From assembly GCA_963803925.1 (NCBI GenBank), contig CAWDOM010000005.1:134295-198294 (forward strand): 64,000 nt of DNA, in the 5' to 3' direction. Shown here piece by piece: positions 4,499 to 43,123 of the stretch. Source of the DNA: an uncultured Actinomycetota bacterium. Lineage in GTDB: Bacteria > Actinomycetota > Thermoleophilia > RBG-16-64-13. Each line of letters opens with the position of its first letter. Within the stretch, counting starts at the first letter, position 1. The position numbers and the translations under genes are program-made. Below the pieces are notes generated by a model, which saw nothing but the letters and a program-made list of their open reading frames with translations, did not search any database and was not told the DNA's origin.

Positions 4499-4529
4499 AT
4501 CCTCCGCCGATCTTTGGACTCGGTGCCGA

Positions 4530-16238: not shown

Positions 16239-16281
16239 CGTGTGCCCTTCGCCGGCAACAAACGAGCAGCGCCGAGCCAGC

Positions 16282-17475: not shown

Positions 17476-18865
17476 GTTGCTGGCACTGTGTGGGTTCGAC
17501 GAGCGTGAGAGCAGTGAGCTCCTCCCCCGCGTTCAGCAGGTCTTCGTTCGCACCGGACTGACCGCCGCGGACATCGAGATCGCGAAGCAACGCTTGACCA
17601 CCTACTACGACATGGAGCTTCGCGGCGTTCGCAGACTGATGGGTCTCTTCCTCAAGGACTTCTGCGATATCGTCCTCATGAGGGAAGACGGCAGAAAACG
17701 CATCGTTCACGCCTGCATGCTGCCGGGGATGGACCTACTCGGATCGGCCATCATGGACAACACGGCGGAGGTCGGGTTGATTAGCCCGAACACCACGTTC
17801 ATGGTCGTCTTGGGCTGCATGTTCGGTAAGTTCGTGCCCGTTCTCGAGGCCGCGGAGAGGCAATGGCTGAAGGCCGGAGCGGTAGCGCATTGCGGTATGG
17901 TGAAGAGCAGGGTCGGGCTGATCAGTCTCGGCCTCATCCCGAGGCCTGACCTGACCATCACATCGGGATACGTCTGCGAGACGAGCCCCAAGGTGAACGA
18001 GATAATCGAACAGGTACACGGCATACCCGCCTGCTTCGTGGACGCCATGGAGGACCGGGAGCTGTGGGAATACCCGGCCGCGTCCCGAGCGACGACCTAC
18101 GCCGCCAAGAGCATGCGGGCCGCCTGTGGGCGAATCGAGCAGGTGACGGGCTTCGGTCTGGCGGACGACATGCTGTGGCGTGTCATCGAGGGTCGAAGGC
18201 CCCTCGATGAAGCCATGAACAGAGTGGCAGAGCTGATCAGAACGGCCGACCCTCTGCCGCTTGGCTCCACTCATTTGAACTTGCTGCTGGCCGTCAACTG
18301 CATTTCGTTTGTCGGAGACCAGCTGCCCGAGGCGATCGACATTCTCGACACTCTGCGGGCCGAGTTGCTGGCCAGAACCCGCAGGGGAGTCGGCGCTACG
18401 CCGAAGGGAGCGCCTCGCGTGCTCGCGATCTTTCCGCACCACCACTCCGATCCTCGCTGGGAGCACCAAGCGAATCAGGCCGGCCTCGCCATAGTCGCCT
18501 TCGATTTCCAAGGAGCTTCGGAACTGGCCGGCTCCGAAGTCGCGATCGCCGACCCCAACGATCCCTACGAAGTCATCGTGCAGAACCTCCACGGGTCGTT
18601 CACTCAGCCCCTGGGCGGACGCATCGCCATCGTGGTCGACTTTTGCAGGCGGTTGAGGGTGGACGGGGTGCTCAATCACTACCACCTCGGGTGCCGGTAC
18701 GTCGTGGGTGACGCGTTGATACTGCGGGATGCGATCGTCAAGGAGCTCGGCATGCCGGTGCTCATGGTCGAATGGGACAACTTCGACCCCCGTTCCTACA
18801 ATCAAGAACAGTATGAAGCCAAGCTGGAGACTTTCAGAACCATGATCGAATCGAGGGTTTCATGA
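17468..18865 (+). CDS. 2-hydroxyacyl-CoA dehydratase / BcrBC-family (HGD-D domain) subunit, 465 aa, pair 1
   Basis: Cys in VLGCMFGKF, HCGMVKSRVG and HYHLGCRY. It overlaps the upstream subunit by 8 nt, consistent with translational coupling. Confidence 0.7.
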   Translation: MRELLALCGFDERESSELLPRVQQVFVRTGLTAADIEIAKQRLTTYYDMELRGVRRLMGLFLKDFCDIVLMREDGRKRIVHACMLPGMDLLGSAIMDNTAEVGLISPNTTFMVVLGCMFGKFVPVLEAAERQWLKAGAVAHCGMVKSRVGLISLGLIPRPDLTITSGYVCETSPKVNEIIEQVHGIPACFVDAMEDRELWEYPAASRATTYAAKSMRAACGRIEQVTGFGLADDMLWRVIEGRRPLDEAMNRVAELIRTADPLPLGSTHLNLLLAVNCISFVGDQLPEAIDILDTLRAELLARTRRGVGATPKGAPRVLAIFPHHHSDPRWEHQANQAGLAIVAFDFQGASELAGSEVAIADPNDPYEVIVQNLHGSFTQPLGGRIAIVVDFCRRLRVDGVLNHYHLGCRYVVGDALILRDAIVKELGMPVLMVEWDNFDPRSYNQEQYEAKLETFRTMIESRVS

Positions 18866-21222: not shown

Positions 21223-21869
21223 AACTCCTCGGGTATGTTCTCTGGGTGCTTGTAGAAGACGTACTCACAGGCTCCGTGCCCGATGGGTTCCGACACCACT
21301 TTGACCCGCACGAACCGCCCAGTGTTCTCAATGGCGAGAGCTTCGGTGATAGGGCAGTGCACGCAGTAGATGGGGAAGTCCTTCTTGCCCCAGGTGACGG
21401 CATGCGGTCCTTCGACTTTCGCCAGACCGACTTCGGAGCTGTAGCCGCCCATCTGGATGATCCGCTCCCCCGACCCGCAGGGCTTCATGCTGAGGCTGAT
21501 CGTCTCGTCGGTCTCGACGATGGTGATCGGCTGCATGTGGCCGCGCAGGCCGCTTGCCGTCTGCTCCACCAAAGAGCGGAGGTCGGTCTTCTCCGGCGGC
21601 TTGAAAACCACCTTCGCCTCGGCGGTGTGGGCCTGCCTCTCCGCTTCTTCGAGCGCCTCGGTGCCGTGATTCTCGTAGATGTAGGTCTGAAGACCGGCAA
21701 CCCAGAACATGTACCCATCGTGGAGGTGGTTGTACTCCTTCTTCATGCGCTGCGCCAGAGTCTTCGCCCTGTCCTTGTCACCGGCGTCGATGGCCTGCGA
21801 CAGGAGGTCCAGGGTCGGCGTCCCCAGCTCCTTCAACTCCTGCTCGGTGAAGAGCCTGTCCTTGCTCAT
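21177..21869 (-). CDS. Hypothetical protein with Cys motifs (C-x4-..; CVHC; HGAC), possibly metal-binding
   Basis: 230-aa ORF with good coding character. I recognise no family. Confidence 0.4.
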   Translation of the reverse strand: MSKDRLFTEQELKELGTPTLDLLSQAIDAGDKDRAKTLAQRMKKEYNHLHDGYMFWVAGLQTYIYENHGTEALEEAERQAHTAEAKVVFKPPEKTDLRSLVEQTASGLRGHMQPITIVETDETISLSMKPCGSGERIIQMGGYSSEVGLAKVEGPHAVTWGKKDFPIYCVHCPITEALAIENTGRFVRVKVVSEPIGHGACEYVFYKHPENIPEEFYERIGKKKPLAEAR

Positions 21870-21925: not shown

Positions 21926-22678
21926 TTAGTGAGTCGGATCCAAGCCCAGTCGCGTGAGGAGCTTCACCCGGAATTCATCCCCGCCGGAACCAAGGGCCGT
22001 CAAAGTGATAGGCATGCGCTTCAGGCTGTCGAGCACCACGCCGCACATGTCGAACGGAATGCTCAGAAGATGCACGCCCGGGGCAAATACTCCGAGCGCC
22101 CGCATGCCCATGCTGAGTATCGAGGTGTAATTGACCTCGCCGGTGAGATAGGGGTAGACGAAGAGCCACGCGCAGCCGATCACCCCAGTGCTCTTGCTGG
22201 TCCACATGTCTCCCGTGGAGTAGCTCATCGCCCGCAGGACGACTTCCGATTGCTCCTCGCGGGCGGCGATAATCAGAAGATCGGGGTCGCCGGCAAGCTT
22301 GCCGAGGGGCGCCAGCGTCACGTACTCGATGCCGCGCCTGTCCTCCAGCCTCGGTATGTGATCATAGAGGCGGCTCCCCGAGCGGGGGCTATCGAAGACC
22401 TCGAGCCCGGTGCCGTAGACCCCTGACGTGTACACGAGTGGAAGGTCTTTGCCGAGCGCGTAGAGGGCCGCACCACACATGTGATTCTCCGCGGCCGCGT
22501 AGAAAGCGTTGCCCTGTTGGGCGTGACGAAGCATCTCGCAAAGGCGCATGGTGCCGTCGAGACGGGGAACATCCTCCGGAGGATCGACGGAGTACGTCAC
22601 CCCCACTGGTGGAACCTCGAAGCCGATCTCGCTGCCGGCCTCCAACCATCCTTGCTGGTCGAAACCCATGGATATCAC
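21926..22678 (-). CDS. Hypothetical protein, possibly DUF169-like
   Basis: 250-aa ORF. The DUF169 resemblance is weak. Confidence 0.35.
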   Translation of the reverse strand: MISMGFDQQGWLEAGSEIGFEVPPVGVTYSVDPPEDVPRLDGTMRLCEMLRHAQQGNAFYAAAENHMCGAALYALGKDLPLVYTSGVYGTGLEVFDSPRSGSRLYDHIPRLEDRRGIEYVTLAPLGKLAGDPDLLIIAAREEQSEVVLRAMSYSTGDMWTSKSTGVIGCAWLFVYPYLTGEVNYTSILSMGMRALGVFAPGVHLLSIPFDMCGVVLDSLKRMPITLTALGSGGDEFRVKLLTRLGLDPTH

Positions 22679-22724: not shown

Positions 22725-23453
22725 TCACGGATAGACCGACTGCCTGAGAGCGAGTGGATCATGGCCTGGGAGGATCGTGCCTCCGAGATCCCTCAGTCGG
22801 TCTAGGCTCTCGTAATACTCCCGGAGGTCGACGTAGAGCGGCCCGGGCCAGAACGACGCACCAACAGGAACATCCATGTTGACATAGTGGGCTATGGTGT
22901 CCCCCGCGAGTACGAACAAGCCGTCGTCGGTATCAACGAGCACGGCTTGGCTTCCCGGAGAGTGCCCCGGAGTCACAATCACCCGAATGCCGTCGGTGAT
23001 CTCGGTTTCACCATCGATGACATCGAGGTCCATGCTCGCCAAGTCGACGTCGTAGGCCTGTATGTGTGCCGCGAGGGGATGGCGCGCGTACTCCAGCTCG
23101 CTCTTCTGTACAACGAAGCGGGCGTTGGGAACGAGACAGTTGCCGGCGCAGTGGTCCAGATGGAGGTGGGTGTTGACGACCAGCCGGATATCCTCCGGCG
23201 CCAGGTCGAACCTCTTGAGCTGCGCCTCCAAGGTATGCTCCGGAATCCGCTTGAAGTCGCCCTTCAGATCCTCCTCCTCCATCGACCCGAAGCCGGTGTC
23301 GACCAACACGGCCTCATCGCCGCTCCGCAGCAACCAGGCCAGAACCACGCCGTCGACGCTGCCTCCAGGCGGCGACATCAGGAGCACCTGGGAGATGTTC
23401 CTAATCGCGGTTGCCAGCACCAGGGGGGCTATCGTCCACTTCTTGCGCGTCAT
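22725..23453 (-). CDS. MBL-fold metallo-hydrolase (lactonase-like)
   Basis: HLHLDHCAGN (HxHxDH) motif and downstream His/Asp ligands. Confidence 0.75.
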   Translation of the reverse strand: MTRKKWTIAPLVLATAIRNISQVLLMSPPGGSVDGVVLAWLLRSGDEAVLVDTGFGSMEEEDLKGDFKRIPEHTLEAQLKRFDLAPEDIRLVVNTHLHLDHCAGNCLVPNARFVVQKSELEYARHPLAAHIQAYDVDLASMDLDVIDGETEITDGIRVIVTPGHSPGSQAVLVDTDDGLFVLAGDTIAHYVNMDVPVGASFWPGPLYVDLREYYESLDRLRDLGGTILPGHDPLALRQSVYP

Positions 23454-23503
23454 CTTCTCGTCTCCCTCCAGTCAAATCGGTGTACAAGCGTTCACATCGG
23501 TTA

Positions 23504-23550
23504 TTGACATCCTATCGCAGCTCCTGATAGTTTTGGTGAACAATCGTTAT
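23504..23550 (+). promoter_or_regulatory. Promoter/operator block upstream of TetR paralog 2: TTGACA-N18-TAGTTT-TG-GTGAACAA-TC-GTTAT
   Basis: AT-rich divergent intergenic region between the MBL hydrolase gene and the TetR gene. Conserved with 8574..8619. Confidence 0.45.
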
Positions 23551-23616
23551 AAAGATTCTGGGCGGAGTGGCGTTGGGACGGACACCAGGGGCTTCTGCCG
23601 GGAGGGTCACCGAGCT

Positions 23617-24345
23617 GTGCGCAAGGGCATTCGAGCAACGCGAGAGCAAAGGCAACGTCAGATCGCCGACGTCACGCTGAAGCTGATCGCCCGGTACGGG
23701 GTCCACGGCGCCACCATCTCGCGTATCGCGTCGGGCATCGGACTAACGCGATCGGCTCTCTACAAGTTCTTCCCCAACCGTGAAGCGATGCTCGGGGGGG
23801 CTCTGGATCTCCTCGTGGAGCGGGTACCCCGGTGGATCGACCAATCGTCCGGACGCGACGTCTACGAGCATTTGATGGACATGGGCAGACAACATGCGCC
23901 GCTGGGCCGGGCGGAATTCGAGTCCTTCACCCGGCCCTGGTTCCAGTTCATCGCGGCCAGCAGCGCGGAGCAGATGACCCACGAGCTGGCCAAGCGTCAG
24001 ATGGTCTTCGTTCAAGACTTCGCGATCCTCGTCGAACAGGGGAAGCGCGACGGAAGCATCCGGGAGGATGTGGACAGCAGTCTGGTCGCGTGGGCTCTCA
24101 TGATGTGGGGATGGGCGGACGACGTCGCCCGTCTGGTCGGGCTGGAGCAGGTGATGGGAACCGAGATGTCGATCGAGATCTTCAGGCGCATGCTCGGGGA
24201 CATAGCCGGTCCTTCTCGCGACTCGGGCGGCGCCCGGGACGAGAGAGCAGGCGCCGGAGGGATTGATGGGCGTGATGGGCGTGATGGGCATGGGGTGCGC
24301 CCCGTCGAAGAAAGCGCGACGATCACAACCGACCCACGACCATGA
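23617..24345 (+). CDS. TetR/AcrR family transcriptional regulator, paralog 2
   Basis: GTG start with a GGAGGG RBS 10 nt upstream. HTH ATISRIASGIGLTRSALYKFFPNREAML. The long upstream part of the ORF track (from 23062) is a Pro/Ser/Arg-rich shadow. Confidence 0.75.
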   Translation: MRKGIRATREQRQRQIADVTLKLIARYGVHGATISRIASGIGLTRSALYKFFPNREAMLGGALDLLVERVPRWIDQSSGRDVYEHLMDMGRQHAPLGRAEFESFTRPWFQFIAASSAEQMTHELAKRQMVFVQDFAILVEQGKRDGSIREDVDSSLVAWALMMWGWADDVARLVGLEQVMGTEMSIEIFRRMLGDIAGPSRDSGGARDERAGAGGIDGRDGRDGHGVRPVEESATITTDPRP

Positions 24346-24638: not shown

Positions 24639-25289
24639 ATGGTGACTACGCACAACGATGCCGGCTTGGCCCTCGACCCATCAAAGACGGCGCTGCTTCT
24701 TGTCCACTGGCAGAACGAGATAGCGGCTCCCAAGGGGCGCAACGCCCAGGACATGGCACAGCGGGTGCGGGAGAAAGGCATCCTGCGACGCACCCAGGCA
24801 GTGCTCGACGCGACCCGTAGGCGTGGGATGCTCGTAGTGTACGTCAACGGAGTGCATGCTCCAGGCTACCCTGAGTTGGGCGCGAGGACCGTGCCACTGG
24901 CAGCCATGCTCATATCGAGGGGCTCGATGCTGAAGGGCACATGGGGAGTCGAGGTCATCGATGAGCTCAAGCCCATCGACGGCGAGATCGTACTCGACAA
25001 CTACTCGTCCAACGGGTTCTGTGCTACACCGCTCGATCTCATACTGCGCAACCACGGCATCAGCGACTTGGTGATCAGCGGCATAGCCACGCACGTCGCG
25101 GTGGAGTCGACCACGCGGGAGGCCTTCCACATGGGCTACACGGTCTACACGCTGGAGGATTGCTGCACCAGCACCACTCAGGAGATCCACGATTGGAGCA
25201 TCAAGAACACGCTCTCGTTCTTCGGCTTCGTGACCAACTCAGGTAGCTACATAGCCGCCATCGGCGCGGCAGACGGCAAGGAGGCGTAG
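24639..25289 (+). CDS. Isochorismatase-family cysteine hydrolase, paralog 1
   Basis: LLVHWQNE, VISGIATHVAVESTTREA and EDCC catalytic-Cys region. Confidence 0.8.
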   Translation: MVTTHNDAGLALDPSKTALLLVHWQNEIAAPKGRNAQDMAQRVREKGILRRTQAVLDATRRRGMLVVYVNGVHAPGYPELGARTVPLAAMLISRGSMLKGTWGVEVIDELKPIDGEIVLDNYSSNGFCATPLDLILRNHGISDLVISGIATHVAVESTTREAFHMGYTVYTLEDCCTSTTQEIHDWSIKNTLSFFGFVTNSGSYIAAIGAADGKEA

Positions 25290-26138
25290 ATGAGCCGGCT
25301 GGATCTCGAGGACAAGGTGGCCCTGGTAACAGGCGCGGCGGGCAAGCGCGGCATGGGCCATTCGGTGGCTCTGCGGCTGGCGGAGCAGGGGGCCGACGTG
25401 GCGGTGCTCGACATCGCGCCGGCGCCGAGGAGCCTCTTCACCGGTGACGACGGCTGGCGCGGGCTCGACGAGGTGGTCGAGGAGATCGAGGCACTCGGCC
25501 GCAGGGGTCTCGCCTTGGTGGCCGACATCAGCAGCAAAGAGCAGACCGCCCAAGCTGTCGAGGCGGCCGCACAGAAGCTCGGCCGGATCGACGTGCTGGT
25601 GCACTGCGCGGGCATGCGCGGCACGCCCAACGTGAACGTAGTCGACGGCGACGAGGACGAGTGGAAACGGATGTTCGACGTGAACCTCCTGGGTTCGTTC
25701 GTCATCGCGAAGCCGGTCGTGGCGCAGATGGTGCGGCAGGGAGGCGGGGGCAAGATCGTGCTCATCGCCTCGCTCGCCGGACGGGAGGGCGTGAAGGGCA
25801 ACGCCGCCTACGCCGCGTCGAAATGGGGTGTCATCGGCCTGGTGCAGAGCCTCGCCAAAGAGACCGCGGCGCACCGGATCAACGTGAACGCCGTGTGTCC
25901 CGGAATGATCATCACCAACCTGCGCGACCACTGGATCGAGGCCGAGGCCAAGCAGGCCGGCACGACCTCGGAGGAGTACCGGCGGCAAGAGTACGAGAGA
26001 GGCGGCAAGATCGTGCCTCTTGGTCGCATGGGCATGCCCGACGACATAGCCGACGTCGTCTCGTTCCTGGCATCGAAGCACTCGGACTACATGACCGGCC
26101 AGTCGCTCAACGTCTGCGGCGGCCTCGTCATGAACTAG
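25290..26138 (+). CDS. SDR family oxidoreductase
   Basis: TGAAGKRGMG; YAASK; starts immediately after the upstream stop codon. Confidence 0.85.
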   Translation: MSRLDLEDKVALVTGAAGKRGMGHSVALRLAEQGADVAVLDIAPAPRSLFTGDDGWRGLDEVVEEIEALGRRGLALVADISSKEQTAQAVEAAAQKLGRIDVLVHCAGMRGTPNVNVVDGDEDEWKRMFDVNLLGSFVIAKPVVAQMVRQGGGGKIVLIASLAGREGVKGNAAYAASKWGVIGLVQSLAKETAAHRINVNAVCPGMIITNLRDHWIEAEAKQAGTTSEEYRRQEYERGGKIVPLGRMGMPDDIADVVSFLASKHSDYMTGQSLNVCGGLVMN

Positions 26139-26275: not shown

Positions 26276-27058
26276 GTGACCAGATCGTTCGAGAACAAAG
26301 TGGCGCTCGTGACCGGGGCGGCAAGTGGTATCGGGCGGGCCGGGGCCGTGGCCTTCGCCCACGAAGGAGCAAGGGTGCTGGTTACGACCGGTTCTAACGT
26401 CGAGGGCGGCGAGGAGACGGTGCGGCTCATCAAGGACGCGGGCGGCGAAGCCTCGTTTCTCAAGGTCGACGTATCCGACGAGGCCGACGTCGAAGAGATG
26501 GTGACGGCCTGCCTGTCTCGCTACGGAGGGCTCGACTTCGCCTTCAACAACGCAGGGGTCGGGCCCGACGGCAGGCGGATCCCATTCTTCCAGATAGTCG
26601 ACATGCCCAAGGACATCTGGGATCACACGCTCGGTGTCAACGTCACCGGCGCCTTCTTGTGCATGAAGCACGAGTTGCGGCACATGATCGCGCAGGGGTC
26701 GGGGGTGATCGTCAACACGTCGTCGGTGCATCCTCTCAAGGCCAAACCGGGCTCGTGCGCGTACATGGCGAGCAAGGCCGGACTCAACGGCATAACCAAG
26801 ACGGCCGCGCTCGAGGCAGCTCCATACAACGTCAGGGTTAACACCATTATGCCCGGGCCCACGGAGGGAACGCTGCTCGTCGACTACCTTACCGCGGCCC
26901 ATCCGGAACGGAAGGCCGACATGAAGCGGGTCGTCCCGCTGCCCCGCCTCGGCAACACCGACGACATGGCGCAGACACTTATCTGGCTCTGCTCCGACGC
27001 CTCCTCCTTCATCACCGGGCAGTGCCTGGCGGTGGATGGAGGCCTCACCGCAGGCTGA
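26276..27058 (+). CDS. SDR family oxidoreductase
   Basis: TGAASGIGRA; NNAG; YMASK. Confidence 0.85.
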   Translation: MTRSFENKVALVTGAASGIGRAGAVAFAHEGARVLVTTGSNVEGGEETVRLIKDAGGEASFLKVDVSDEADVEEMVTACLSRYGGLDFAFNNAGVGPDGRRIPFFQIVDMPKDIWDHTLGVNVTGAFLCMKHELRHMIAQGSGVIVNTSSVHPLKAKPGSCAYMASKAGLNGITKTAALEAAPYNVRVNTIMPGPTEGTLLVDYLTAAHPERKADMKRVVPLPRLGNTDDMAQTLIWLCSDASSFITGQCLAVDGGLTAG

Positions 27059-27099: not shown

Positions 27100-28254
27100 A
27101 TGAAGATCCCCCAGATCGGCGCCCTGATGGAGACGAGACTGCAGGACCTGGCAGAAGCCCGCGGCCGCGGCACAAAGGTCGTGGGGTATCTCTCCGGCGG
27201 CTTCGTGCCCGACGAGCTCATCTACGCGTCGGGAGCCATCGCGCTCTGCCTCAGCCATGGCGGCGAGGCCCGGGCGACTGAGCGGGCGCTCGCGCTCGTG
27301 CCCAACGTGATCTGCCCGTTCGCCCGCGCCCAGATCGGCGAGACACTGCTGAGGACCAACCCTTTCTACGCTTCGTTGGACTTGGTGGTAGTGCCGACAA
27401 CCTGCCAGCATCTGAAGCAGGCCGGCGATGTGTGGGAGCACTTCGATGTGGTCGACGTCTTCAAGCTGGGCGTTCCCTACGACTGCCAGGACGACTACGA
27501 ACTCGAGTACTACCGAGACAGACTGGCCGAGCTGAAGAGGGCGCTCGAGCGACTCACCGGCACCCTCATCACCGACGACAAGCTGAACGATGCTATCGCC
27601 GTTCATAACCGGCTGCGCGGGCTGCTGAAGACGCTGAGCCTGGCGCGCCGCGGGCCGCGGCCGGCCGTCGACACCCTCGACTTCGTGCGACTGAACCACC
27701 TCTCCATGTATGCCGACCCCGTCAGCACCTGTGCTGTGCTCGAGACTCTCTGCGGCGCGACCGCCGAGCCGCCGGCGCCCGCGGCGAAGAGACCGCGTGT
27801 GATGTTGATCGGGCCCGCCCTCGCCTTCGGCGATTACGACATCATCAGGATGATCGCCGACGCGGGGGCCGACGTGGTGGTCGAGGAGGTGCTCGAGGGC
27901 ATGCGCGACTACTGGCAGGTCGTCGACGGCCCCGGCGATCCGCTCGACCGGCTCGCGAGAAGCTATCTACTCGGCAAGAAGCCGGCCGCGTTCATGAGGG
28001 GCGCGACCCGCAAGAGGCTCGATTTCGTGCTCGATCTCATCGAGGAGTTCGACGTCGACGGCGTGCTCTGGTACCAGCTGCTCTGCTGTGAGCTCTACGA
28101 CGAGGAGTCGTTCCTCTTCGAGAAGGTGCTGCAGAAACGGGGCATTCCCCTGCTGCTGGTCGAGTCCGACTACCACAACCTCGACGCGGGCCCGGTGCGC
28201 ACGCGGCTGGACGCGTTCGTCGAGATCCTACGAGGCGGGCCGGTCGATGCTTGA
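27100..28254 (+). CDS. 2-hydroxyacyl-CoA dehydratase / BcrBC-family (HGD-D) subunit, ~385 aa, pair 2
   Basis: About 65% identical to 16282..17475, with the same Cys motifs (VICPFARA, TCQHLK, LLCCELYDEES). The ORF track begins at 27022; start chosen by paralog alignment. Confidence 0.7.
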   Translation: MKIPQIGALMETRLQDLAEARGRGTKVVGYLSGGFVPDELIYASGAIALCLSHGGEARATERALALVPNVICPFARAQIGETLLRTNPFYASLDLVVVPTTCQHLKQAGDVWEHFDVVDVFKLGVPYDCQDDYELEYYRDRLAELKRALERLTGTLITDDKLNDAIAVHNRLRGLLKTLSLARRGPRPAVDTLDFVRLNHLSMYADPVSTCAVLETLCGATAEPPAPAAKRPRVMLIGPALAFGDYDIIRMIADAGADVVVEEVLEGMRDYWQVVDGPGDPLDRLARSYLLGKKPAAFMRGATRKRLDFVLDLIEEFDVDGVLWYQLLCCELYDEESFLFEKVLQKRGIPLLLVESDYHNLDAGPVRTRLDAFVEILRGGPVDA

Positions 28255-29674
28255 GCTTCTAGAACTCTGCGGATTCGACGACGGAGAACGTCAGGCTCAG
28301 CTCCCCCGAGTGAAGTCGGCCTTCTCGAGGCTGGACCTGACCGAGGACGACATCAAGACGGCCAAGGAGAGGCTCCACCTCTACTACGACATGGAGTTGT
28401 CGGGCGTCAGGATGATGGTGGGCGTCCTTCTGAAGGACATGGTCGATATCGTGCTGCTTCGCGACGAGGGCGCGCGAAAGGTCATCCATTCGTGCATGGC
28501 GCCGGGATTCGAGGTGCTCGGCACGGCCATCAACACGAACTCCGACGACGTTAGGCTGACCTATCCGAACTTCACATTCATGGCGGTCCTCGGGGGTGTG
28601 TTCGGCAGGTTCGTGCCGGTGCTCGAGGCTGCCGAGCGGTTGTGGCTGCGAGGTGGCATCGTGCGCCACTGCGGCATGGTCAAGGCCAGGGTGGGCCTCA
28701 TGAGCTTGGGACTGCACCCCCGGCCCGACCTGACGGTGACCACAGGCTACCTCTGCGACACCAGTCCGAAATCAAACGAGATCATGGAAGCGGTCTTCGG
28801 CATACCGGCGTACTGCGTCGACCATGTGCAAGATCGCCGGTCCGCCGAGTTCCCCGACGGCAGCCGGCTGACCGTGTTGTCTGCCAAAGGCATGCGCAGG
28901 TTCGGCGCCGTCGTGCAGAGAGAGACCGGCCTCGAGGTGACCGACGAGATGTTGTGGCGGGCCATCCAGGCGCGACGGCCCATCGGACAGGCGATGGATC
29001 GAGTGCTCGACGTGATCCGTCTCAACGACCCTCCACCGCTCGGGGCGACTCATCTCAACCTGCTCGCGGCGCTCGGCCGGCCGCCCTACAAGGAGAGTGA
29101 GATTCCGCGGGTGGTGGAAATCCTCGACACGCTCCGCGATGAGTTGGAGAACCGCGTGCGCGGAGGCGTGGGGGCGGTTCCCAAGGGTGCGCCTCGCATC
29201 CTCGTGCTGTGCCCAAACCATCACTCCGACCCCCGCTTCGAGTACCTGTCCAACCGGCTCGGCCTGAACATCGTAGCCTCCGACTTCAACTTCTCCTCGG
29301 GAGAAGACAGGTCGGGCGCGGGCATCGTCGACCCCAACGACCCATACGATGTCATCTGCCAGCATCCTCACGGCACCCCCGGTCAATGTCTGGGGGGGCG
29401 GGCCCATATCATTCTCGACGTCTGCCGGCGCCTCCGCATCGACGGCGTCATCGACCACTACCACGCGGGTTGCAGGTACATGGCCGCCGACACCGTCGCG
29501 CTGCGCGAAACGGTCACCCGGGAACTGGGTATTCCGGTGCTGGCCTATGAATGGGACAACTTCGACCCCCGTTCGTACAACGAGAAGGACCTGGTGGCCA
29601 ACCTCGAGACGTTCTGGGGAATGGTCGAAACGAGTGGCGGCCCAATCCAGCAAGGAGAAAAACGTCATGAGTGA
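28247..29674 (+). CDS. 2-hydroxyacyl-CoA dehydratase / BcrBC-family (HGD-D) subunit, ~475 aa, pair 2
   Basis: ATG at 28247 overlaps the upstream stop by 8 nt. HCGMVKARVG and HYHAGCRY are conserved, but VLGGVFG replaces VLGCMFG of the paralog. The ORF track starts at 28088. Confidence 0.7.
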   Translation: MLELLELCGFDDGERQAQLPRVKSAFSRLDLTEDDIKTAKERLHLYYDMELSGVRMMVGVLLKDMVDIVLLRDEGARKVIHSCMAPGFEVLGTAINTNSDDVRLTYPNFTFMAVLGGVFGRFVPVLEAAERLWLRGGIVRHCGMVKARVGLMSLGLHPRPDLTVTTGYLCDTSPKSNEIMEAVFGIPAYCVDHVQDRRSAEFPDGSRLTVLSAKGMRRFGAVVQRETGLEVTDEMLWRAIQARRPIGQAMDRVLDVIRLNDPPPLGATHLNLLAALGRPPYKESEIPRVVEILDTLRDELENRVRGGVGAVPKGAPRILVLCPNHHSDPRFEYLSNRLGLNIVASDFNFSSGEDRSGAGIVDPNDPYDVICQHPHGTPGQCLGGRAHIILDVCRRLRIDGVIDHYHAGCRYMAADTVALRETVTRELGIPVLAYEWDNFDPRSYNEKDLVANLETFWGMVETSGGPIQQGEKRHE

Positions 29675-30305
29675 AGCCGTGTCGCGCGTTCTCGACCCCC
29701 GCACGACGGCGCTGCTGCTCTTGCACTGGCAGAACGAACTCGTGAAGCCCGGAGGGAAGATCTACGATCCGATGGGTGGCATCCTCGCGGCGGCCGGCAC
29801 CGTGCAACGCACACAGGCCGTCCTCCAGGCGAGCAGGATCCGCGGTGTGTTTGTCGTCTTCGTGAACGTGGGCCACAGGCGCGGGTACCCCGAATTGGCC
29901 CCCGATCCGGGTCCACTGGCGGCAGGTCTTGTCAGGGCGCAGGCGTTCATCAGGGGGACATGGGGGGCCGAAGTCATCGAAGAACTGCGGCCGCTCGATG
30001 ACGAGATCGAGATCGTCAACTACTCCACGAGCGCTTTCATCTACACCGAACTGGACCTTCTGCTCCGCAACCGAGGCATCACGACCGTCGTTCTCTCCGG
30101 CCTCGCGACCAACTGGGTGGTGGAGAGCACCGCGCGAGACGCCGGCAACAGGGGCTACGCAATCTGGACATTGAGCGACTGCTGCAACAGCTCCAGCCAG
30201 GAGGCACACACTTTCTGCTTGACGAACTCGCTCCCCATGCTGGGCGTCGTCTGCGACTCGGCGTCCTACATTCAGGCTCTGAGCGACCCCGGGCCTGAGC
30301 GGTGA
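29667..30305 (+). CDS. Isochorismatase-family cysteine hydrolase, paralog 2
   Basis: ATG at 29667 with an AAGGAG RBS; overlaps the upstream HGD-D gene by 8 nt. LLLHWQNE...LSDCC. Confidence 0.8.
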   Translation: MSEAVSRVLDPRTTALLLLHWQNELVKPGGKIYDPMGGILAAAGTVQRTQAVLQASRIRGVFVVFVNVGHRRGYPELAPDPGPLAAGLVRAQAFIRGTWGAEVIEELRPLDDEIEIVNYSTSAFIYTELDLLLRNRGITTVVLSGLATNWVVESTARDAGNRGYAIWTLSDCCNSSSQEAHTFCLTNSLPMLGVVCDSASYIQALSDPGPER

Positions 30306-30349: not shown

Positions 30350-31303
30350 ATGCTCGCAGTAACCGGGGCGACCGGCAAAATCGGAGGCAGAGTGGCGGCC
30401 CGCCTCGCGGCACTCGGTCTCGCGCAGAGAATCATCGCGCGCGATCCGTCGAAGTTGCCGGCCCTGCCCGGCGCGGAAGTTCGCCAGGTCTCCTCCTACG
30501 GCGACCCAGTGGGCATGGGAAAAGCCCTCGCGGGAGTCGATACCCTGTTTCTCGTCTCAGCGCGAGAGATCATGGGTGTGATCATGCAGTCCTACGACCG
30601 CAATGAGCCTGTTCCGTACTACGACCGGCTGCACCAGCATATTTGCGCCGTGTCGGCGGCTGCAGCGGTCGGTGTCAGACACATCGTCTACCTGTCGTTC
30701 CTCAACGCCCAGCCCGATGCGACCTTCTTCGCCGCCCGCGAGCACTACCGCACCGAGGAGTTCATCCGCTCGACCGGCGTTGGGTTCACCTTCATGCGCC
30801 AGGGTCTCTACCTGGACAACGTCCCGGCCCATGTGATGAGCGATGACGTCATGCGTGCACCGGCGGGCCAGGGAAGCGTCGCCTGGATCTCACGCGACGA
30901 TATCGCCGAAGCCGTCGTGGCCGTTCTGACGAGCGCAGGCCACGACGGGCAGACATACGACATCTCCGGGCGAGAGGCGCTCACCATGGCTGAGACGGCC
31001 GATTGTATGTCGGCCGTGCTCGGCAGGAAGATCTCGTACCTCGCTCAGACCCCGCACGAGGCGAGGACCAGTCGCAACATGAGCCGGATGATCGATCTCG
31101 AGCTGGCCCGCCGGGAGAAGACGGGCGACAAGCTGACCGAAACCGAGCTTGAGGGATGGATCTCGCACTACCTCGAGATCGCGACCGGAGAGGCCGGCAC
31201 GATCAGCGACGCTGTCTTTCGCCTCACGGGGCGCCCCGCGGAGACGGTAGCGGAATACCTGCAGAACCATCCTGAGAGCTACAGCTACTTGCTGAAGGGT
31301 TAG
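30350..31303 (+). CDS. NmrA-like / atypical SDR NAD(P)-binding protein
   Basis: MLAVTGATGKIGG start with an AGGAG RBS. An alternative GTG start at 30302 overlaps the upstream stop. Confidence 0.7.
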   Translation: MLAVTGATGKIGGRVAARLAALGLAQRIIARDPSKLPALPGAEVRQVSSYGDPVGMGKALAGVDTLFLVSAREIMGVIMQSYDRNEPVPYYDRLHQHICAVSAAAAVGVRHIVYLSFLNAQPDATFFAAREHYRTEEFIRSTGVGFTFMRQGLYLDNVPAHVMSDDVMRAPAGQGSVAWISRDDIAEAVVAVLTSAGHDGQTYDISGREALTMAETADCMSAVLGRKISYLAQTPHEARTSRNMSRMIDLELARREKTGDKLTETELEGWISHYLEIATGEAGTISDAVFRLTGRPAETVAEYLQNHPESYSYLLKG

Positions 31304-31336
31304 CCACATGGGTCGCACGGAGAGGATGGCTCAGTG

Positions 31337-33220
31337 ATGGGCTACGCGCATGTGTTCAAGCCTTTGAGAATCGGCAGGTTCACTGCGAAGAACCGCGTCG
31401 AGTGCGCGCCTGCCATACCCTTTCTCGCCTCGGAGGACTGCTTCGTCACCCGGGAGCTCGTCGAGTGGTACCGGAGCATAGCCAAAGGCGGCGCGGCCGT
31501 CGTGACCATAGGCGAGACGTCGATCGACTACGAGGACGCCCGCTTGCACGGGCGGGCGAACGTGCTCTGCCTGGGCGACAACCGGTCCATCCACGGTCTG
31601 TCGGTTCTTGCCGAGACCATCCAGCGCTACGACGCCCTCGCCTCCATCGAGCTGAACTACGAAGGGCTCCGCGCGCCGACGGACATGACCGCGGGCGAGA
31701 TCGAGACCGTCATCGAGCGTTTCGCCGATGCGGCAGCCCGCTGCAGACATGCGGGCATGGACATGATCATGATCCATGGAGGCCATGGCCACCTGTTGGG
31801 GAGCTTCTTCTCGCCGGTCACCAATAGGCGCTCCGACCGATACGGGGGAAGCCTTCAGAAACGAGCCCGGCTCGCTCTGGAGGTGCTGGAGGCGGTGCGC
31901 AAGAAGACCGGCAACGATGTCGCCATCGAGTACCGGCTGAGCGCCGACGAGTTGACGCCGGGTGCGCCTTCGGTTGACGAAACCATCGAATTCGCCCAGA
32001 TGATCTCGGACAGGATCGATCTGCTGCATGTGTCGGCGGGCAACATCACGGTGCCCAACACCTGTCCCAGGATGATCCCGCCCATATACCTGCCGCGCGG
32101 CACGAACGTGGAGTATGCGGAGCGCTTCAAGCGCGAGCTGAGCGTCCCGGTGACCGCAGTCGGCTCCCTCACCATGGACATGGCCGAGGAGATCATCGCT
32201 CAGAACAAGGCCGACATGGTCGCCATGATCCGCTCCATCATCGCCGACCCCGATTGCGTGGCGAAGGCGAAGACCGGCCGGCACGCGAGCATACGACCCT
32301 GCGTTCGCTGCAACCGCTGCGTCTCCGAGACCCGAGAGTTCACGCGACCCACTCGCTGCACGGTGAACCCCGTCGCGGGCAGGGAGGCGGAATTCGTGAA
32401 CCTGGCGGCGCCGTCGGGCATAAGAAAGGTCGTTGTGATCGGCGGAGGGCCCGCGGGCATGGAGGCCGCGAAAACGGCGGCCGGGCGTGGCCACGACGTC
32501 GTGCTGTTCGAGAAGGATGCCCGCTTGGGCGGAGCCCTCATCCAGGCGTCGGCTCTGTCATTGAAGAACGACATGAAGACCTACCTCAAGTGGGCGGAGC
32601 GGGCGACGGCGCAGACGCCCGGACTCGAGGTCCGGCTCTCGACTGAAGCGACCGTCGACGCCGTCACGGCGGAGCACCCGGACGTGGTGATCGTCGCCCT
32701 GGGCGGCTCTCCCCGCGTACCCGAACTGCCCGGCATCGACCGGCAGAACGTCATGCTGGCGGGCGATGCTCATGCGGACGGCACGAGGACCGGCGACAAA
32801 GTGGTGGTAGTGGGCGCCGGGATGGTGGGCTGCGAGACGGCTCTGGGTCTTGCTCAGGAGGGCGAATCGGTAGTTCTTGTCGACATGCTGCCCCTCGACC
32901 GGATCGCCCTTGACGCTCACCCGATCAGCAGGACGGCCCTCTTCGCCATGCTGAGGAGCGCTTCTGTCGAGATCGAGGCCCAAACGAAGCTCGAAGCCGT
33001 TACCGCAAGCGGTGTGATCGTCAGCCGTGGCGACGGCAGCAGGGCCGAGATCGCCTGCCACTCTGTGGTGCTCGCCACGGGTGTGACACCCCGCCGCGAG
33101 CCGGAGCGGCTCTTCGAGGCCCTTTGCCACGAGGTTCACGTCATCGGCGATTGCAGACGGGCGGGCGGAAACCTGCGCACGGCCATAGCCGATGGATTCA
33201 ATGCGGCAATCGACATATGA
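31337..33220 (+). CDS. OYE / 2,4-dienoyl-CoA-reductase-like FMN + [4Fe-4S] + FAD/NAD(P) oxidoreductase, paralog 3 (intact)
   Basis: 627 aa with MIHGGHGHLLGSFFSP, RPCVRCNRCV and VVVIGGGPAGMEAA motifs. Confidence 0.8.
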   Translation: MGYAHVFKPLRIGRFTAKNRVECAPAIPFLASEDCFVTRELVEWYRSIAKGGAAVVTIGETSIDYEDARLHGRANVLCLGDNRSIHGLSVLAETIQRYDALASIELNYEGLRAPTDMTAGEIETVIERFADAAARCRHAGMDMIMIHGGHGHLLGSFFSPVTNRRSDRYGGSLQKRARLALEVLEAVRKKTGNDVAIEYRLSADELTPGAPSVDETIEFAQMISDRIDLLHVSAGNITVPNTCPRMIPPIYLPRGTNVEYAERFKRELSVPVTAVGSLTMDMAEEIIAQNKADMVAMIRSIIADPDCVAKAKTGRHASIRPCVRCNRCVSETREFTRPTRCTVNPVAGREAEFVNLAAPSGIRKVVVIGGGPAGMEAAKTAAGRGHDVVLFEKDARLGGALIQASALSLKNDMKTYLKWAERATAQTPGLEVRLSTEATVDAVTAEHPDVVIVALGGSPRVPELPGIDRQNVMLAGDAHADGTRTGDKVVVVGAGMVGCETALGLAQEGESVVLVDMLPLDRIALDAHPISRTALFAMLRSASVEIEAQTKLEAVTASGVIVSRGDGSRAEIACHSVVLATGVTPRREPERLFEALCHEVHVIGDCRRAGGNLRTAIADGFNAAIDI

Positions 33221-33271: not shown

Positions 33272-34723
33272 ATGAGTGAGATACCTGTGCAAGCCGACGT
33301 GGTCGTGGTCGGCTCTGGTGCGGCAGGCATGTCCGCGGCGGTCACCGCCGCTGAGGGCGGAGCGAGGGTAGTCGTCTTCGAGAAGCAGCGGTCTCTGGGT
33401 GGTACCACCAACTTCCTGCACGGCACGTTCGCCGCCGAGAGCGACATGCAACGCGAGCGCTTCATCGATTTCACACGCGATGAGGCCTTCCGGCACATCA
33501 TGGACTACAGCCATTGGCTGGCGAACCCCTGGCTGGTGCGCGCCATCGTCGACGAGTCGGGGGCGACCATACGTTGGCTGCAGGACCGGGGCGTCGTATT
33601 CACCGACGCGACTATCAACATGCTCGGCTGTCCGCGCACGTATCACATCGTGAAGGGCAAAGGCGAATCCATCGTCAAGGCCCTCGTCACCCAGGCGAAG
33701 GGCAAGGGAGCCGAGGTGCTGCCGGGTCTGCCGGTCACCGCGTTGCTGAAGGAGGGCAACCGAGTCACCGGAGTGCTGGTCGACGACGACGGGCAAGAGG
33801 TCGAGGTGGCTTGCAGGGCCGTCATGCTCGCGACCGGTGGCTTCGCCAACAACAAGGATTGGATCAAGAAGTACTGCGGCCTCGAGCTCGGAGTCGACGT
33901 CATACCGATCGGCAACACCGGCAAGATGGGTGACGGCATCCGCATGGCCTGGGAAGCGGGTGCGGCCGAAGAGGGCATCGAGGTACTCGAGGTTTTCCGA
34001 GTGGCTCCCATTGGTCCGGAGTTCTCCGGCTTCTGCGAGCTCGAGATGGCAGCGATGCAACCCGATCTCTGGGTGACCCCCCTCGGCAAGCGGTTCTGCG
34101 ACGAGACCATCGGCTACTGGGACAGCCATGTCGGCAACGCCAACGTGAAGTGGGGCAAGAGCGGCTACACCTGGAGCGTGTTCGACGATTCGATCATCGA
34201 CAAGATTATGCAAGACGGCATCACCAGGAACATCAGCGTGGAGTTCCTGCCGGGACACAAGCCTCAGAACATCCGCAGGGAGATCCAAGCGGCCATCGAC
34301 AACGGGAGCACCGAGGTGGTGGCAGCCGACTCGGTCGAGCAACTCGCCGCGAAGATGGGCGTCGAACCGGCGATGCTGCGGGCGACGGTCGACGAATACA
34401 ACGCCGTCTGTGCAGACCATCGCGACCCGATATTCGCGAAAGACCGCAAGTATCTTCGCCCCCTGACCGGCCCGCGCTACTACGCCGTCAAGGGCCACAC
34501 GGTATTCCTGGGAACTATGGGCGGCATCAGAATCAACGAGAAGACCGAGGTGCTCGACAAGAAGGATATTGTGATTCCCGGTCTGTACGCGGGTGGCTTC
34601 GACGCCGGTGGCATGTACGGAGACAGCTACCCCATCAAAGGATCGTCAGGCCTTGCCTCGGCCTTCGCCCTTGCCTCCGGACGCATCGCCGGCCAGAACA
34701 TGCTCCAGTATCTCGGAACGTAG
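33272..34723 (+). CDS. FAD-dependent flavoprotein, fumarate-reductase / KstD-like (FAD_binding_2), paralog 2
   Basis: VVGSGAAGMSAAV...GTMGGIRIN...GLYAGGFDAGG. Confidence 0.8.
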   Translation: MSEIPVQADVVVVGSGAAGMSAAVTAAEGGARVVVFEKQRSLGGTTNFLHGTFAAESDMQRERFIDFTRDEAFRHIMDYSHWLANPWLVRAIVDESGATIRWLQDRGVVFTDATINMLGCPRTYHIVKGKGESIVKALVTQAKGKGAEVLPGLPVTALLKEGNRVTGVLVDDDGQEVEVACRAVMLATGGFANNKDWIKKYCGLELGVDVIPIGNTGKMGDGIRMAWEAGAAEEGIEVLEVFRVAPIGPEFSGFCELEMAAMQPDLWVTPLGKRFCDETIGYWDSHVGNANVKWGKSGYTWSVFDDSIIDKIMQDGITRNISVEFLPGHKPQNIRREIQAAIDNGSTEVVAADSVEQLAAKMGVEPAMLRATVDEYNAVCADHRDPIFAKDRKYLRPLTGPRYYAVKGHTVFLGTMGGIRINEKTEVLDKKDIVIPGLYAGGFDAGGMYGDSYPIKGSSGLASAFALASGRIAGQNMLQYLGT

Positions 34724-35120: not shown

Positions 35121-36632
35121 ATGACCGTGCCTTTGCCGGTGCAATCGGAGCTTCAGCGCCGGCGCCACTATGTGCTCACCGTCGTGTCTATGGGCACATT
35201 CATGACCCCCTTCGACAGCAGCATCATCGCAGTGGCGCTGCCGGCGATGGGCGCGAGCCTGCATCTCAACTACTCGTATGCTCTGTGGGCACAGGCGGCC
35301 TACCTCCTCTTGACGACCGCGCTACTCATTCCCGCCGGCAGGATCGCCGATTCGCGCGGACCCATCCGATACAACCTTGCCGGCAACATCGTCTTCGCCC
35401 TCGGCTCAGCGCTGGCCGGACTTGCCCAGAACGGGCTGATGCTGATCGTCGGCCGCTGCGTCCAGGGCGCCGGCGGCGCGTTCATGTTCGCGACTTCGAC
35501 CGGCATCATCACGGCGGTCTTCCCCCGCTGCCAGCGCGGGAGGGCGATCGGCATCAACCTGACGGCGGGGTACGTCGGCCTGATGGCCGGCCCGGCGGCC
35601 GGCGGGTTCATCGTGGCCCGCCTCGACTGGCGCTGGGTGTTCTTCATCAACCTTCCTGTCGCCGTGGCGGTTCTCGCTGCCGGGTGGACACTCATGAGCG
35701 CGGAGCTTCGCGAGCGGCAGGCCGCGTTGATGGCGCACCGGCCGGCGTGTTCCGAGGGCCGTGGTTTCGTTGCTCGGCGTCATGGTAGAACATCGCTCTG
35801 TCTGCGAAGTGCGGATTGGCAGGCCCCCCTCCTGCTTGCGGCGTTTCTCACAGCCCTCTTCCTCCCCTTGACGTTCTCGCCTCTGTGGGGGTGGAGCAGC
35901 GCTAGAACTATCGGCCTGCTGTTGGCCGCCGTCGTGTTTCTGTTCGCGTTCATCGTGAGAGAAGATCGCGCTACGCAGCCGATGCTCGACCTAGACCTGC
36001 TTCGCGGCAATCGCGTCTTTGCGGTGGCCTGCTCGGCAGCCTTCGTCTACTCCGTGGGGATGTTCGCCGCGATCACCCTCACCGCCGTGTATGCCCAAGT
36101 AGTGCAAGGCCGTTCGGCCGAGCAGGCCGGGCTCATGCTCCTGGTGCAACCGGTTCTCATGGTGCTGATATCCCCCATCGCCGGTCGGCTATCCGACCGA
36201 GTGGGCGCGCGGCCCCTTACCGGCCTCGGCGGGCTCTTGCTGAGCGCCGGCATGATCCAGCTGGCCTTGAGCGGAGACTCGGTCGCGCGCATACTTCTCG
36301 GACTCGCCACGGTGGGAGTGGGGATGGCGGTTTTCAGTTCACCCAACATGTCCGCGATCATGGGAGCCGTGCCGCACCATCAGCTGAACCTCGGCTCCGG
36401 CTTCCAGGCGGCGATGCGCTTTGGTGGACAGGGTTTCTCGATCGCGGTGCTGGGCTCGATCGCCGCCTGGAAGCTCGGTCCTCACGGCGCCCACATCATC
36501 TTCTTGGGCGACAGTGCCTCCGCCGTCAGCGCGTCAGACTTCGCCGACGGCTACCAGGCTGCGATGCTGGTCGGCGCCGGACTGACCTTTCTGGCTTCGC
36601 TGCTCTCATGGCTGGCCCGGCCCGCTCGCTAG
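35121..36632 (+). CDS. MFS transporter (DHA2 / EmrB-QacA-like)
   Basis: 503 aa, about 14 predicted TM segments, MFS motifs (GRIADSRG). The central 30 aa are odd, possibly from compensating frameshifts. Confidence 0.7.
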   Translation: MTVPLPVQSELQRRRHYVLTVVSMGTFMTPFDSSIIAVALPAMGASLHLNYSYALWAQAAYLLLTTALLIPAGRIADSRGPIRYNLAGNIVFALGSALAGLAQNGLMLIVGRCVQGAGGAFMFATSTGIITAVFPRCQRGRAIGINLTAGYVGLMAGPAAGGFIVARLDWRWVFFINLPVAVAVLAAGWTLMSAELRERQAALMAHRPACSEGRGFVARRHGRTSLCLRSADWQAPLLLAAFLTALFLPLTFSPLWGWSSARTIGLLLAAVVFLFAFIVREDRATQPMLDLDLLRGNRVFAVACSAAFVYSVGMFAAITLTAVYAQVVQGRSAEQAGLMLLVQPVLMVLISPIAGRLSDRVGARPLTGLGGLLLSAGMIQLALSGDSVARILLGLATVGVGMAVFSSPNMSAIMGAVPHHQLNLGSGFQAAMRFGGQGFSIAVLGSIAAWKLGPHGAHIIFLGDSASAVSASDFADGYQAAMLVGAGLTFLASLLSWLARPAR

Positions 36633-42833: not shown

Positions 42834-43123
42834 ACGACCTCCACCCAATGTCCGATCTCGCCGGGCGCCCTGAACAGAGGCTCGATCGTCGCGCCGAACT
42901 TCTTGAAGTGCTCGGTCGAAAGGTGGTAGGCGATCGCCTTCTCGTCTTCATACTGCTCGTAGAAGATGAAATCGTCGGGGTTCTCGGCCGAGCGATGCAG
43001 CGAATAGAGGATGGCCCCGGGATCGCTCATGACGAGGGGCCGCATCCACGTGTAGGCGGCGATGAACTCCTCTGCCTTGCCCGGCGCTATGTGCACTTCA
43101 GCCGTGATTATCTTCATGATCAA
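42830..43123 (-). CDS. ABM (antibiotic-biosynthesis-monooxygenase-like) domain protein
   Basis: 97 aa; ferredoxin-like ABM pattern. Confidence 0.5.
   Translation of the reverse strand: MIMKIITAEVHIAPGKAEEFIAAYTWMRPLVMSDPGAILYSLHRSAENPDDFIFYEQYEDEKAIAYHLSTEHFKKFGATIEPLFRAPGEIGHWVEVV

Follow-up and report, generated by a model that had tools for sequence, protein, structure and literature searches.

The 64,000-nucleotide (nt) stretch of contig CAWDOM010000005.1 analyzed here, referred to as the window, derives from an uncultured high-GC Actinomycetota bacterium (window GC ~64%). Positions 27100-29674 encode two adjacent proteins with HGD-D domains, a small and a large subunit termed pair 2, and are directly followed by iso2, one of two genes for isochorismatase-like proteins in the same gene cluster. 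Pair 2 is an iron-sulfur enzyme of the benzoyl-CoA reductase/2-hydroxyacyl-CoA dehydratase (BCR/HAD; Pfam HGD-D) superfamily, and the presence of two HGD-D genes predicts a heterodimer. The small- and large-subunit genes overlap by 8 nt (ATGCTTGA), as do the large-subunit gene and iso2 (ATGAGTGA), and an AAGGAG site lies inside the large-subunit coding sequence. These genes, their coordinates, both overlaps, and the internal site had been described in an initial annotation of this DNA, and direct reading of the sequence together with Pfam searches found all of them as claimed. The same annotation had pointed to an upstream paralog of ~65% identity, here termed pair 1, which is borne out by a DNA identity of 65.6% over 2541 bp (58% and 56% at the protein level for the small and large subunits, respectively) and by the same kind of 8-nt overlap between its subunit genes (ATGCGTGA). 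A second isochorismatase paralog, iso1, was likewise confirmed at the head of the co-directional cluster and is 50% identical to iso2.

Three cysteines of the large subunit, C142, C170, and C409, are invariant in an alignment of 56 homologs (37-86% identical). C409 aligns with C380 of BzdO, C170 with the C128/129 doublet of BzdO, and C142 with C114 of the double-cubane cluster protein (DCCP), the latter being equivalent to Cys73 of BzdN. In the class I BCR BzdNO, the published cluster ligands are Cys95/128/380 of BzdO and, for the [8Fe-9S] cluster, Cys36/73/100/263/293/327 of BzdN (PMC11971306). As aligned, the invariant cysteines of the large subunit match the ligand positions of BzdO and HadB. 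At the six [8Fe-9S] ligand positions of BzdN, the small subunit has S/G-C-C-L-A-C, and this retention of three of six cysteines is common to both pairs of the window and to all Actinomycetota relatives. The small-subunit residues C72, C102, and C330 are predicted to bind a single [4Fe-4S] cluster in a HadC-like pattern. With three cysteines retained per subunit at the proximal-cubane ligand sites, pair 2 is predicted to carry two [4Fe-4S]-type clusters as in HadBC, and not the [8Fe-9S] and [4Fe-4S] clusters of BzdNO.

The fold of both subunits agrees with this family placement, and sequence searches of the PDB match them to DCCP, BzdN/BzdO, MbdN/MbdO, and HadB/HadC. The best PDB matches of the small subunit are the DCCP structures 7YYL and 6ENO (E=2e-39), followed by BzdN and HadC, and an AlphaFold2 model of the large subunit (pLDDT 90.3) aligns about equally well in Foldseek with DCCP, MbdO, BzdO, and HadB (TM 0.64-0.68). 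In class I BCRs, Glu65, His131, and Trp46 are catalytic residues surrounding the aqua-[4Fe-4S] cluster of the large subunit. The position of BzdO His131 is occupied by Thr172 or Ser173 in the large subunit of pair 2. The N-terminal 140 residues of the large subunit, which include the positions matching BzdO Glu65 and Trp46, could not be aligned with confidence to solved relatives by sequence methods; profile matches to the PDB begin at C142, and a global hhalign comparison of the large- and small-subunit families is of low confidence before residue 140. A decaying pseudogene pair, considered because of the missing activator gene, was rejected in view of the intact open reading frames (ORFs) and dN/dS values of 0.13-0.17 for the HGD-D subunits against their orthologs.

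Distant members of the family (37-45% identical), found in Dehalococcoidia, Spirochaetes, and deltaproteobacterial metagenome-assembled genomes (MAGs), keep five of the six double-cubane cysteines where the small subunit can be aligned (four in locus L035). In addition, distant relatives carry two BcrAD_BadFG ATPase genes directly 3' of the pair, in an order resembling BzdNOPQ (L021-L023, L026, L031, L035, L036, L046, L074, L078). As the distant members retain both features, the actinobacterial branch appears to descend from a BCR-like ancestor, with loss of the distal cubane site and of the ATPases linked to the pair. Loss of half of the double-cubane site has been proposed as a route to new functions in the superfamily (Fuchs et al. 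2025), and the losses in the actinobacterial branch match this evolutionary scheme. A Dehalococcoidales contig (L019, 285-7487) encodes five tandem HGD-D genes.

A further difference between the two pairs had drawn attention to residue 117 of the large subunit, where VLGCMFGKF of pair 1 corresponds to VLGGVFGRF of pair 2, read in the initial annotation as the loss of a conserved cysteine in the cluster region. The substitution is real, yet the cysteine is not conserved, since the column is variable in the 56 homologs (21 Cys, 17 Gly, 12 Ser, 4 Ala, 1 Glu, and 1 Asn). Among close orthologs of pair 2 (66-86% identical, P0001-P0013), all 11 sampled have Gly117. In the AlphaFold2 model, the residue ends a helix (107-118) that follows the strand 102-105, and it lies 25 residues before the first ligand. 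The variable column, with the invariant cysteines standing elsewhere, rules out a lost ligand: residue 117 is a variable, small-residue position whose identity marks subfamilies and is irrelevant to cluster ligation.

The isochorismatase-like partner had been described as a cysteine hydrolase, a designation that does not hold at the residue level. Alignment to 3KL2 (E=5e-40), biuret hydrolase, the 5BK6/6AZO amidase series, and RutB places His20, Asn118, and Val151 of iso2 at the canonical Asp, Lys, and Cys positions, and His, Asn, and Ala in iso1. All of the 47 homologs sampled (49% identity or higher) have His20 and Asn118, and position 151 is Val in 37, Ile in seven, and Ala in three. About 20 further residues are invariant in these homologs, including W21, Q22, N23, E76, T148, E153, R157, D171, C172, C173, E179, and H181. 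The dN/dS of the iso-like genes against orthologs is 0.14-0.23, similar to that of the HGD-D subunits. Judged from sequence, iso1 and iso2 are members of a separate subfamily maintained by purifying selection, and are neither cysteine hydrolases nor decaying copies. Fusions of an HGD-D domain with an isochorismatase domain were absent from the 240 closest homologs (120 of each family) and from the 150 best matches in a set of 1.84 billion representatives. The long proteins recovered were tandem iso-iso proteins, mostly of the canonical type. Many of the representatives P0242-P0386 join two or three isochorismatase domains in tandem, a common arrangement being a canonical D-K-C domain followed or preceded by a degenerate one, which suggests that catalytically dead domains of this fold frequently function alongside active partners.

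Adjacency of the two families recurs in relatives of pair 2 and in distant lineages. An iso-like gene is found in the operon of all eight pair-2-type loci with a readable upstream flank (the window, L001, L038, L041, L051, L052, L054, and L060). In L001, L038, L041, L051, L052, and L054 it stands at the operon head, and in L060 it abuts the start of the small-subunit gene. The small/large 8-nt overlap recurs in L051, L052, L053, L054, L058, and L060. A copy immediately 3' of the large subunit, from which translational coupling had been proposed, is restricted to the window, an identical Logan contig, and the lineages of L051 (large subunit 84% identical) and L053 (77%), where the large/iso overlap is 4 nt. 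L001, L003, L038, L041, L054, L060, and L061 have no downstream iso-like gene, and the NmrA-like gene follows the large-subunit gene after a gap of 57-222 bp. In a neighbor-joining tree, the lineages with the downstream copy fall in one subclade, alongside relatives without it. Further afield, the pairing recurs in rearranged form in L014, L058, L059, L069, L073, L074, L078, L080, L081, L082, L090, and L097. The order is MFS-iso-small-large-iso-FeADH-OYE-SDR in L059, iso-small-large-ATPase-ATPase in L074 and L078, iso-small-large in L069, L080, and L090, and large-iso in L082, while the iso-like gene is convergent to the pair in L058 and lies on the opposite strand, with a DUF169 gene, in L014.

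The linkage was also surveyed from the side of the isochorismatase family by a metagenome scan that returned 80 loci, in which the triad and the neighbors were typed, triad-less loci with at least 1.5 kb of flank were counted, and adjacency was defined as an HGD-D gene within 500 bp. HGD-D adjacency was found for 8 of 27 triad-less homologs versus none of 37 canonical homologs with E/D-K-C (Fisher p=5e-4, uncorrected for relatedness). L074 and L078, with their iso-small-large-ATPase-ATPase order, are two of these eight. The linkage is thus real as a gene neighborhood and more than chance, with a flexible position and no universality, and the triad-less subfamily is a recurrent genomic partner of the HGD-D family of pair 2. 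The part of the earlier proposal that stands is therefore the association itself. DUF169 is the only recurrent neighbor found for triad-less iso-like genes without an HGD-D pair (L055-L057, L065, L066, L091), which suggests that an iso-like/DUF169 module exists. No literature linking isochorismatase-family genes with HGD-D enzymes was found, in agreement with the initial annotation, in a search that left most subscription journals outside its scope; searches on DUF169 and on steroid 21-dehydroxylation (a possible alpha-ketol substrate) returned nothing relevant.

Pair 2 sits in a conserved operon of uncultured anaerobic Actinomycetota, with the order TetR, iso-like, short-chain dehydrogenase/reductase (SDR), SDR, small subunit, large subunit, an optional second iso-like gene, NmrA-like, old-yellow-enzyme (OYE)/FAD, FAD_binding_2 reductase, and transporter (Table 1). 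From 24.6 to 36.6 kb, the genes form a co-directional block with short gaps or overlaps between neighbors, and the gene order on the independent Logan contig is identical. A promoter and terminator scan of 21-37.5 kb gave nothing above the shuffled expectation. The helix-turn-helix (HTH) falls at residues 201-244 of the longest ORF of the TetR gene, which makes a true start near 23.6 kb probable; in L051, a 239-aa TetR lies immediately 5' of the iso-like gene. The OYE/FAD protein scores 399 bits with the NCBIfam BaiCD model (cut-off 825) and is not an equivalog, and the best NCBIfam match of the FAD_binding_2 protein at 33272-34723 is vinyl phenol reductase (VprA; 347 bits vs a cut-off of 600). 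All versions of the orthologous cluster include a transporter, either of the major facilitator superfamily (MFS) or of the TRAP type (DctPQM).

Table 1. Genes and sites of the pair 2 operon and its surroundings (coordinates within the window; E values and bit scores from Pfam searches).
Feature	Coordinates	Strand	Evidence and remarks
Pair 1, paralogous HGD-D pair (411 aa + 465 aa)	16240..17475, 17468..18865	+	Pfam; next genes: MmgE/PrpD (split) and SDR
DUF169 protein, divergent neighboring operon	21926..22678	-	PF02596; kept beside the cluster in L001, L041, L051
Metallo-beta-lactamase-fold protein, divergent from the TetR-iso operon	22725..23453	-	PF00753; kept in L001, L041, L051, L061
TetR-family regulator	23062..24345 (longest ORF)	+	PF00440; HTH at aa 201-244
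iso1, triad-less isochorismatase-fold protein (216 aa; His/Asn/Ala), operon head	24639..25289	+	PF00857 E=1e-35, 123.5 bits (cut-off 27)
SDRa, short-chain dehydrogenase/reductase	25290..26138	+	PF13561/PF00106; kept in L001, L041, L051, L052
SDRb, short-chain dehydrogenase/reductase	26276..27058	+	PF13561/PF00106; kept in L001, L003, L038, L041, L051, L052, L054
Small HGD-D subunit, pair 2 (384 aa)	27100..28254	+	PF06050 E=2e-72
Large HGD-D subunit, pair 2 (475 aa), presumed catalytic	28247..29674	+	PF06050 E=2e-32
AAGGAG Shine-Dalgarno-like site within large-subunit coding sequence	29652..29657	+	Direct sequence reading; 9 nt 5' of the iso2 ATG
iso2, triad-less isochorismatase-fold protein (212 aa; His20/Asn118/Val151)	29667..30305	+	PF00857 E=4e-38, 131.6 bits (cut-off 27)
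NmrA-like NAD(P)-binding protein	30350..31303	+	PF05368/PF13460; likely start ATG 30350 with AGGAG before the ATG; 317-aa product on the identical Logan contig
OYE domain + FAD/NAD(P) domain fusion, Fe-S flavoenzyme, BaiCD/FadH type	31334..33220	+	PF00724 + PF07992
FAD_binding_2 flavoprotein reductase	33272..34723	+	PF00890
MFS transporter, last gene of the co-directional cluster	35121..36632	+	PF07690

Several observations concern the surroundings of this operon. Pair 1 has its own conserved cluster, OYE-small-large-MmgE/PrpD-SDR (window 16240-21222; L013, L042, L048). Because this cluster has no iso-like gene, the two pairs probably serve different substrates. The MAGs carry at least three paralogous HGD-D pairs each (e.g., L006/L038/L042 and L013/L041/L045), which makes a shared activator acting in trans plausible, and by analogy with the family, an ATPase from another part of the genome probably activates pair 2. 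A low-potential electron-input or bifurcation-type module could be formed by two products of minus-strand genes at 39583-42848, a NuoF-like flavoprotein of 385 aa and a protein of 703 aa that combines 2Fe-2S, 4Fe-4S, and GltD-like Pyr_redox_2 domains; their genes adjoin those of two tandem FAD_binding_2 reductases (36676-39572). An ORF of ~230 aa with a coding-like GC3 (GC at third codon positions) of 0.86 adjoins the DUF169 gene (21177-21869, minus strand), and a 238-aa gene without a Pfam match occupies the same position in L051 (1293-2009).

Comparison with characterized systems places the pair 2 unit outside HAD, class I BCR, and DCCP. Like the HAD enzymes (HadBC, 3O3M; HgdAB, FldBC, LcdAB), pair 2 consists of two HGD-D subunits from adjacent, overlapping genes, each with three cysteines at proximal-cubane positions that predict one [4Fe-4S]-type cluster, and, as in HadB, the position of BzdO His131 is not His. 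In contrast to HAD, pair 2 has the order small-then-large and a high-GC actinobacterial host, structural alignment gives 14-17% identity, and the pair 2 cluster has neither an adjacent HgdC/HadI-type activator nor a clostridial-type CoA transferase or 2-hydroxyacid dehydrogenase. The missing activator and CoA-activating enzymes, together with an NCBIfam HadC score (88.5 bits) far below the cut-off of 700, set it apart from that family. Class I BCRs (BzdNO, 8S02; MbdON, 9G87) share the small-then-large order, provide the closest sequence and fold matches of the large subunit, and are resembled by the distant relatives of pair 2 with two downstream ATPase genes and five of six double-cubane cysteines. 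Pair 2 itself is no class I BCR, since it keeps three of the six [8Fe-9S] ligands, has Thr or Ser at the His131 position, and has no ATPase subunits nearby; a ferredoxin gene is likewise absent from its vicinity, and the NCBIfam scores are 87.6 for BzdN (cut-off 453.8) and 30 for BzdO (cut-off 448.6). DCCP (6ENO/7YYL) has the same fold and is the best overall sequence match of the small subunit. However, the seven-cysteine motif CX19CX18-19CX29CX166-170CX32-34CX32C is not kept, with Ser, Leu, and Ala at three ligand positions of the small subunit, and the NCBIfam double_cubane score is 213.5 against a cut-off of 350. Moreover, DCCP is a one-gene homodimer with the reductase DCCP-R, whereas pair 2 comprises two diverged subunits and no reductase gene.

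The iso-like proteins show a comparable mixture of likeness and difference. They resemble the PF00857 hydrolases (PncA, RutB, BiuH, EntB/PhzD; nearest structure 3KL2) in a full-fold domain match (131.6 bits) and in the core motifs GxxT...E.T and D-C. Unlike these hydrolases, iso1 and iso2 are without the catalytic Asp, Lys, and Cys, invariantly across their subfamily, and the genes are partnered by HGD-D pairs and DUF169 rather than by pyrimidine, biuret, or siderophore genes. The true isochorismatases EntB and PhzD keep the Asp and Lys and are without only the Cys. In iso1 and iso2, by contrast, the Asp and Lys positions are His and Asn.

The best reading of the operon is a TetR-controlled, reductive, catabolic one for an imported organic acid. 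With somewhat better than even confidence, pair 2 is regarded as an uncharacterized radical enzyme of the BCR/HAD family with HAD-like clusters, working in this reductive catabolic operon, and the triad-less iso-like protein as a separate partner in the pathway. A low-potential electron, probably from an archerase-type ATPase encoded elsewhere, would reach the small-subunit cluster and pass to the open-site cluster of the large subunit. There, a carbonyl-activated substrate, taken up by the cell as an organic acid, would undergo a ketyl-radical-type reduction or dehydration. The iso-like protein may then serve the pathway separately, as an enzyme or a binding protein for the substrate or product, by a chemistry without a cysteine nucleophile, and the SDR, NmrA-like, OYE, and flavoprotein reductases would carry out the remaining redox steps.

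Several points weigh against this reading. Pfam scanning of ~50 genes and tblastn with 18 activator sequences found no BcrAD_BadFG activator in the 64-kb window, nor does any Actinomycetota locus have an activator ATPase within 10 kb of the pair, so that family analogy is what speaks for ATP-dependent activation. No CoA ligase or transferase (AMP-binding or CoA-transferase domains) was found among the ~50 Pfam-scanned genes of the window, and CoA-activating genes are absent from the recurrent neighbor families annotated at related loci, where no search was aimed at them, which leaves the thioester substrate typical of BCR/HAD enzymes unexplained. All proteins of the pair 2/iso unit stay below the cut-offs of the NCBIfam models, so that none of these models points to a substrate. 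The cluster content is itself a sequence-based prediction, and the role proposed for the iso-like protein derives only from its neighborhood and conservation. Finally, the adjacency counts are phylogenetically non-independent, and ~70% of the triad-less homologs have no HGD-D neighbor.

The initial annotation had proposed a functional three-protein unit, in which the iso-like protein would be a stoichiometric third subunit with a structural or regulatory role, kept at a fixed ratio by translational coupling. The 8-nt stop/start overlap with its internal AAGGAG in the window, the 4-nt overlaps in L051 and L053, the gene abutting the small-subunit start in L060, and the copies on both sides of the pair in L059 are all in line with such a subunit, and loss of the entire catalytic triad fits a non-enzymatic role. 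Yet the placement of the gene varies, with two SDR genes in between in the window, L001, and L051, a convergent orientation in L058, and the opposite strand in L014; the downstream copy is absent from 7 of 10 close orthologs, and the family also occurs, usually next to DUF169, without any HGD-D gene. Given this variable placement and the occurrence of the family apart from HGD-D genes, a fixed complex is unlikely. The ~20 invariant polar residues, H20 and N118 among them, suggest an active or ligand-binding site rather than a scaffold, and no fusion of the two families was recovered in the searches described above. It is the flexible position and the non-universal linkage that favor a pathway partner over a fixed third subunit. 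Alternatively, the adjacency could be incidental: iso2 would have been inserted or duplicated only recently within a catabolic island dense in genes, and would be functionally unconnected to the pair. The downstream copy is limited to a subclade that also holds relatives without it, seven close orthologs have none, and iso2 is nearer to DUF169-linked homologs (68-73%) than to iso1 (50%), suggesting recruitment from another context. This explanation is nevertheless very unlikely. No pair-2-type operon that could be read is without an iso-like gene, at least four further lineages show the pairing in other gene orders, only triad-less homologs were found to have HGD-D neighbors, and iso2 is under purifying selection.

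Two other readings concern the chemistry. The iso-like protein could be a hydrolase, i.e., an amidase or esterase, with a relocated nucleophile such as the invariant Cys172 or Cys173, that deamidates or de-esterifies the substrate of the radical enzyme. The invariant D171-C172-C173, E179, and H181 would suit this idea, and the nearest solved or named relatives are amidohydrolases (biuret hydrolase, RutB, 3KL2). However, canonical members with a normal catalytic Cys (3KL2, biuret hydrolase, 5BK6) share the D-C motif at 171-172, so that this motif gives no evidence for relocation, and all three canonical catalytic positions are replaced together, invariantly; a relocated nucleophile is accordingly considered improbable. 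It could also be speculated that the enzyme of this clade, having lost the distal cubane and its dedicated ATPases, works without ATP on a non-CoA substrate, with low-potential electrons coming from another source, e.g., the NuoF/GltD-like Fe-S flavoprotein at 39583-42848. This chemistry would then require the triad-less iso-like protein as an accessory of a new kind, whether a subunit or a new type of enzyme, such as a hydratase or isomerase, that acts on the product of the radical enzyme. This scenario is judged quite improbable, and the radical enzyme with HAD-like clusters and a separate iso-like pathway partner remains the preferred reading.

Beyond the operon, the window encodes markers of anaerobic metabolism, including a tungsten-type aldehyde:ferredoxin oxidoreductase (51782-53674), hydantoinase/oxoprolinase A and B proteins resembling acetone carboxylase (54659-58405), and glutamate mutase E (50256-51789). 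Four FAD_binding_2 paralogs are present (3035-4582, 33272-34723, 36676-38124, and 38121-39572). A number of genes are split or truncated: MmgE/PrpD (18862-20302) is in two overlapping frames, compared with a single ORF of 472-497 aa in L042 and L048, and glutamate mutase E is in two ORFs. Fragments of OYE genes lie 5' of pair 1 (14414-15798) and at 5530-7137, and an N-terminal fragment of a PFL-like gene at 1435-2037. Since the MAGs of close relatives ('MFD') were built from long reads, assembly indels, and not pseudogene formation, may account for these disruptions.

Some of the most difficult reductions known in biology are catalyzed by BCR/HAD enzymes, and to our knowledge, few types of substrate are known for them. 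The clade of pair 2 has a wide distribution, with members in Actinomycetota, Dehalococcoidia, and Deltaproteobacteria MAGs from soil and sediment, and in its actinobacterial branch, half of a double-cubane site appears to have been lost inside a single family. The system is unusual in that no linked activator gene and no linked CoA-activating gene were found at the loci described, and in its strongly conserved partner with the whole triad replaced. This complete triad loss in a conserved partner family is a testable result in addition to the gene coupling. Pair 2 and its iso-like partner are best described as a well-defined uncharacterized system rather than a demonstrated new mechanism. Once the substrate is identified, the family would gain a new reaction, and the triad-less isochorismatase subfamily, and possibly DUF169, a first function.

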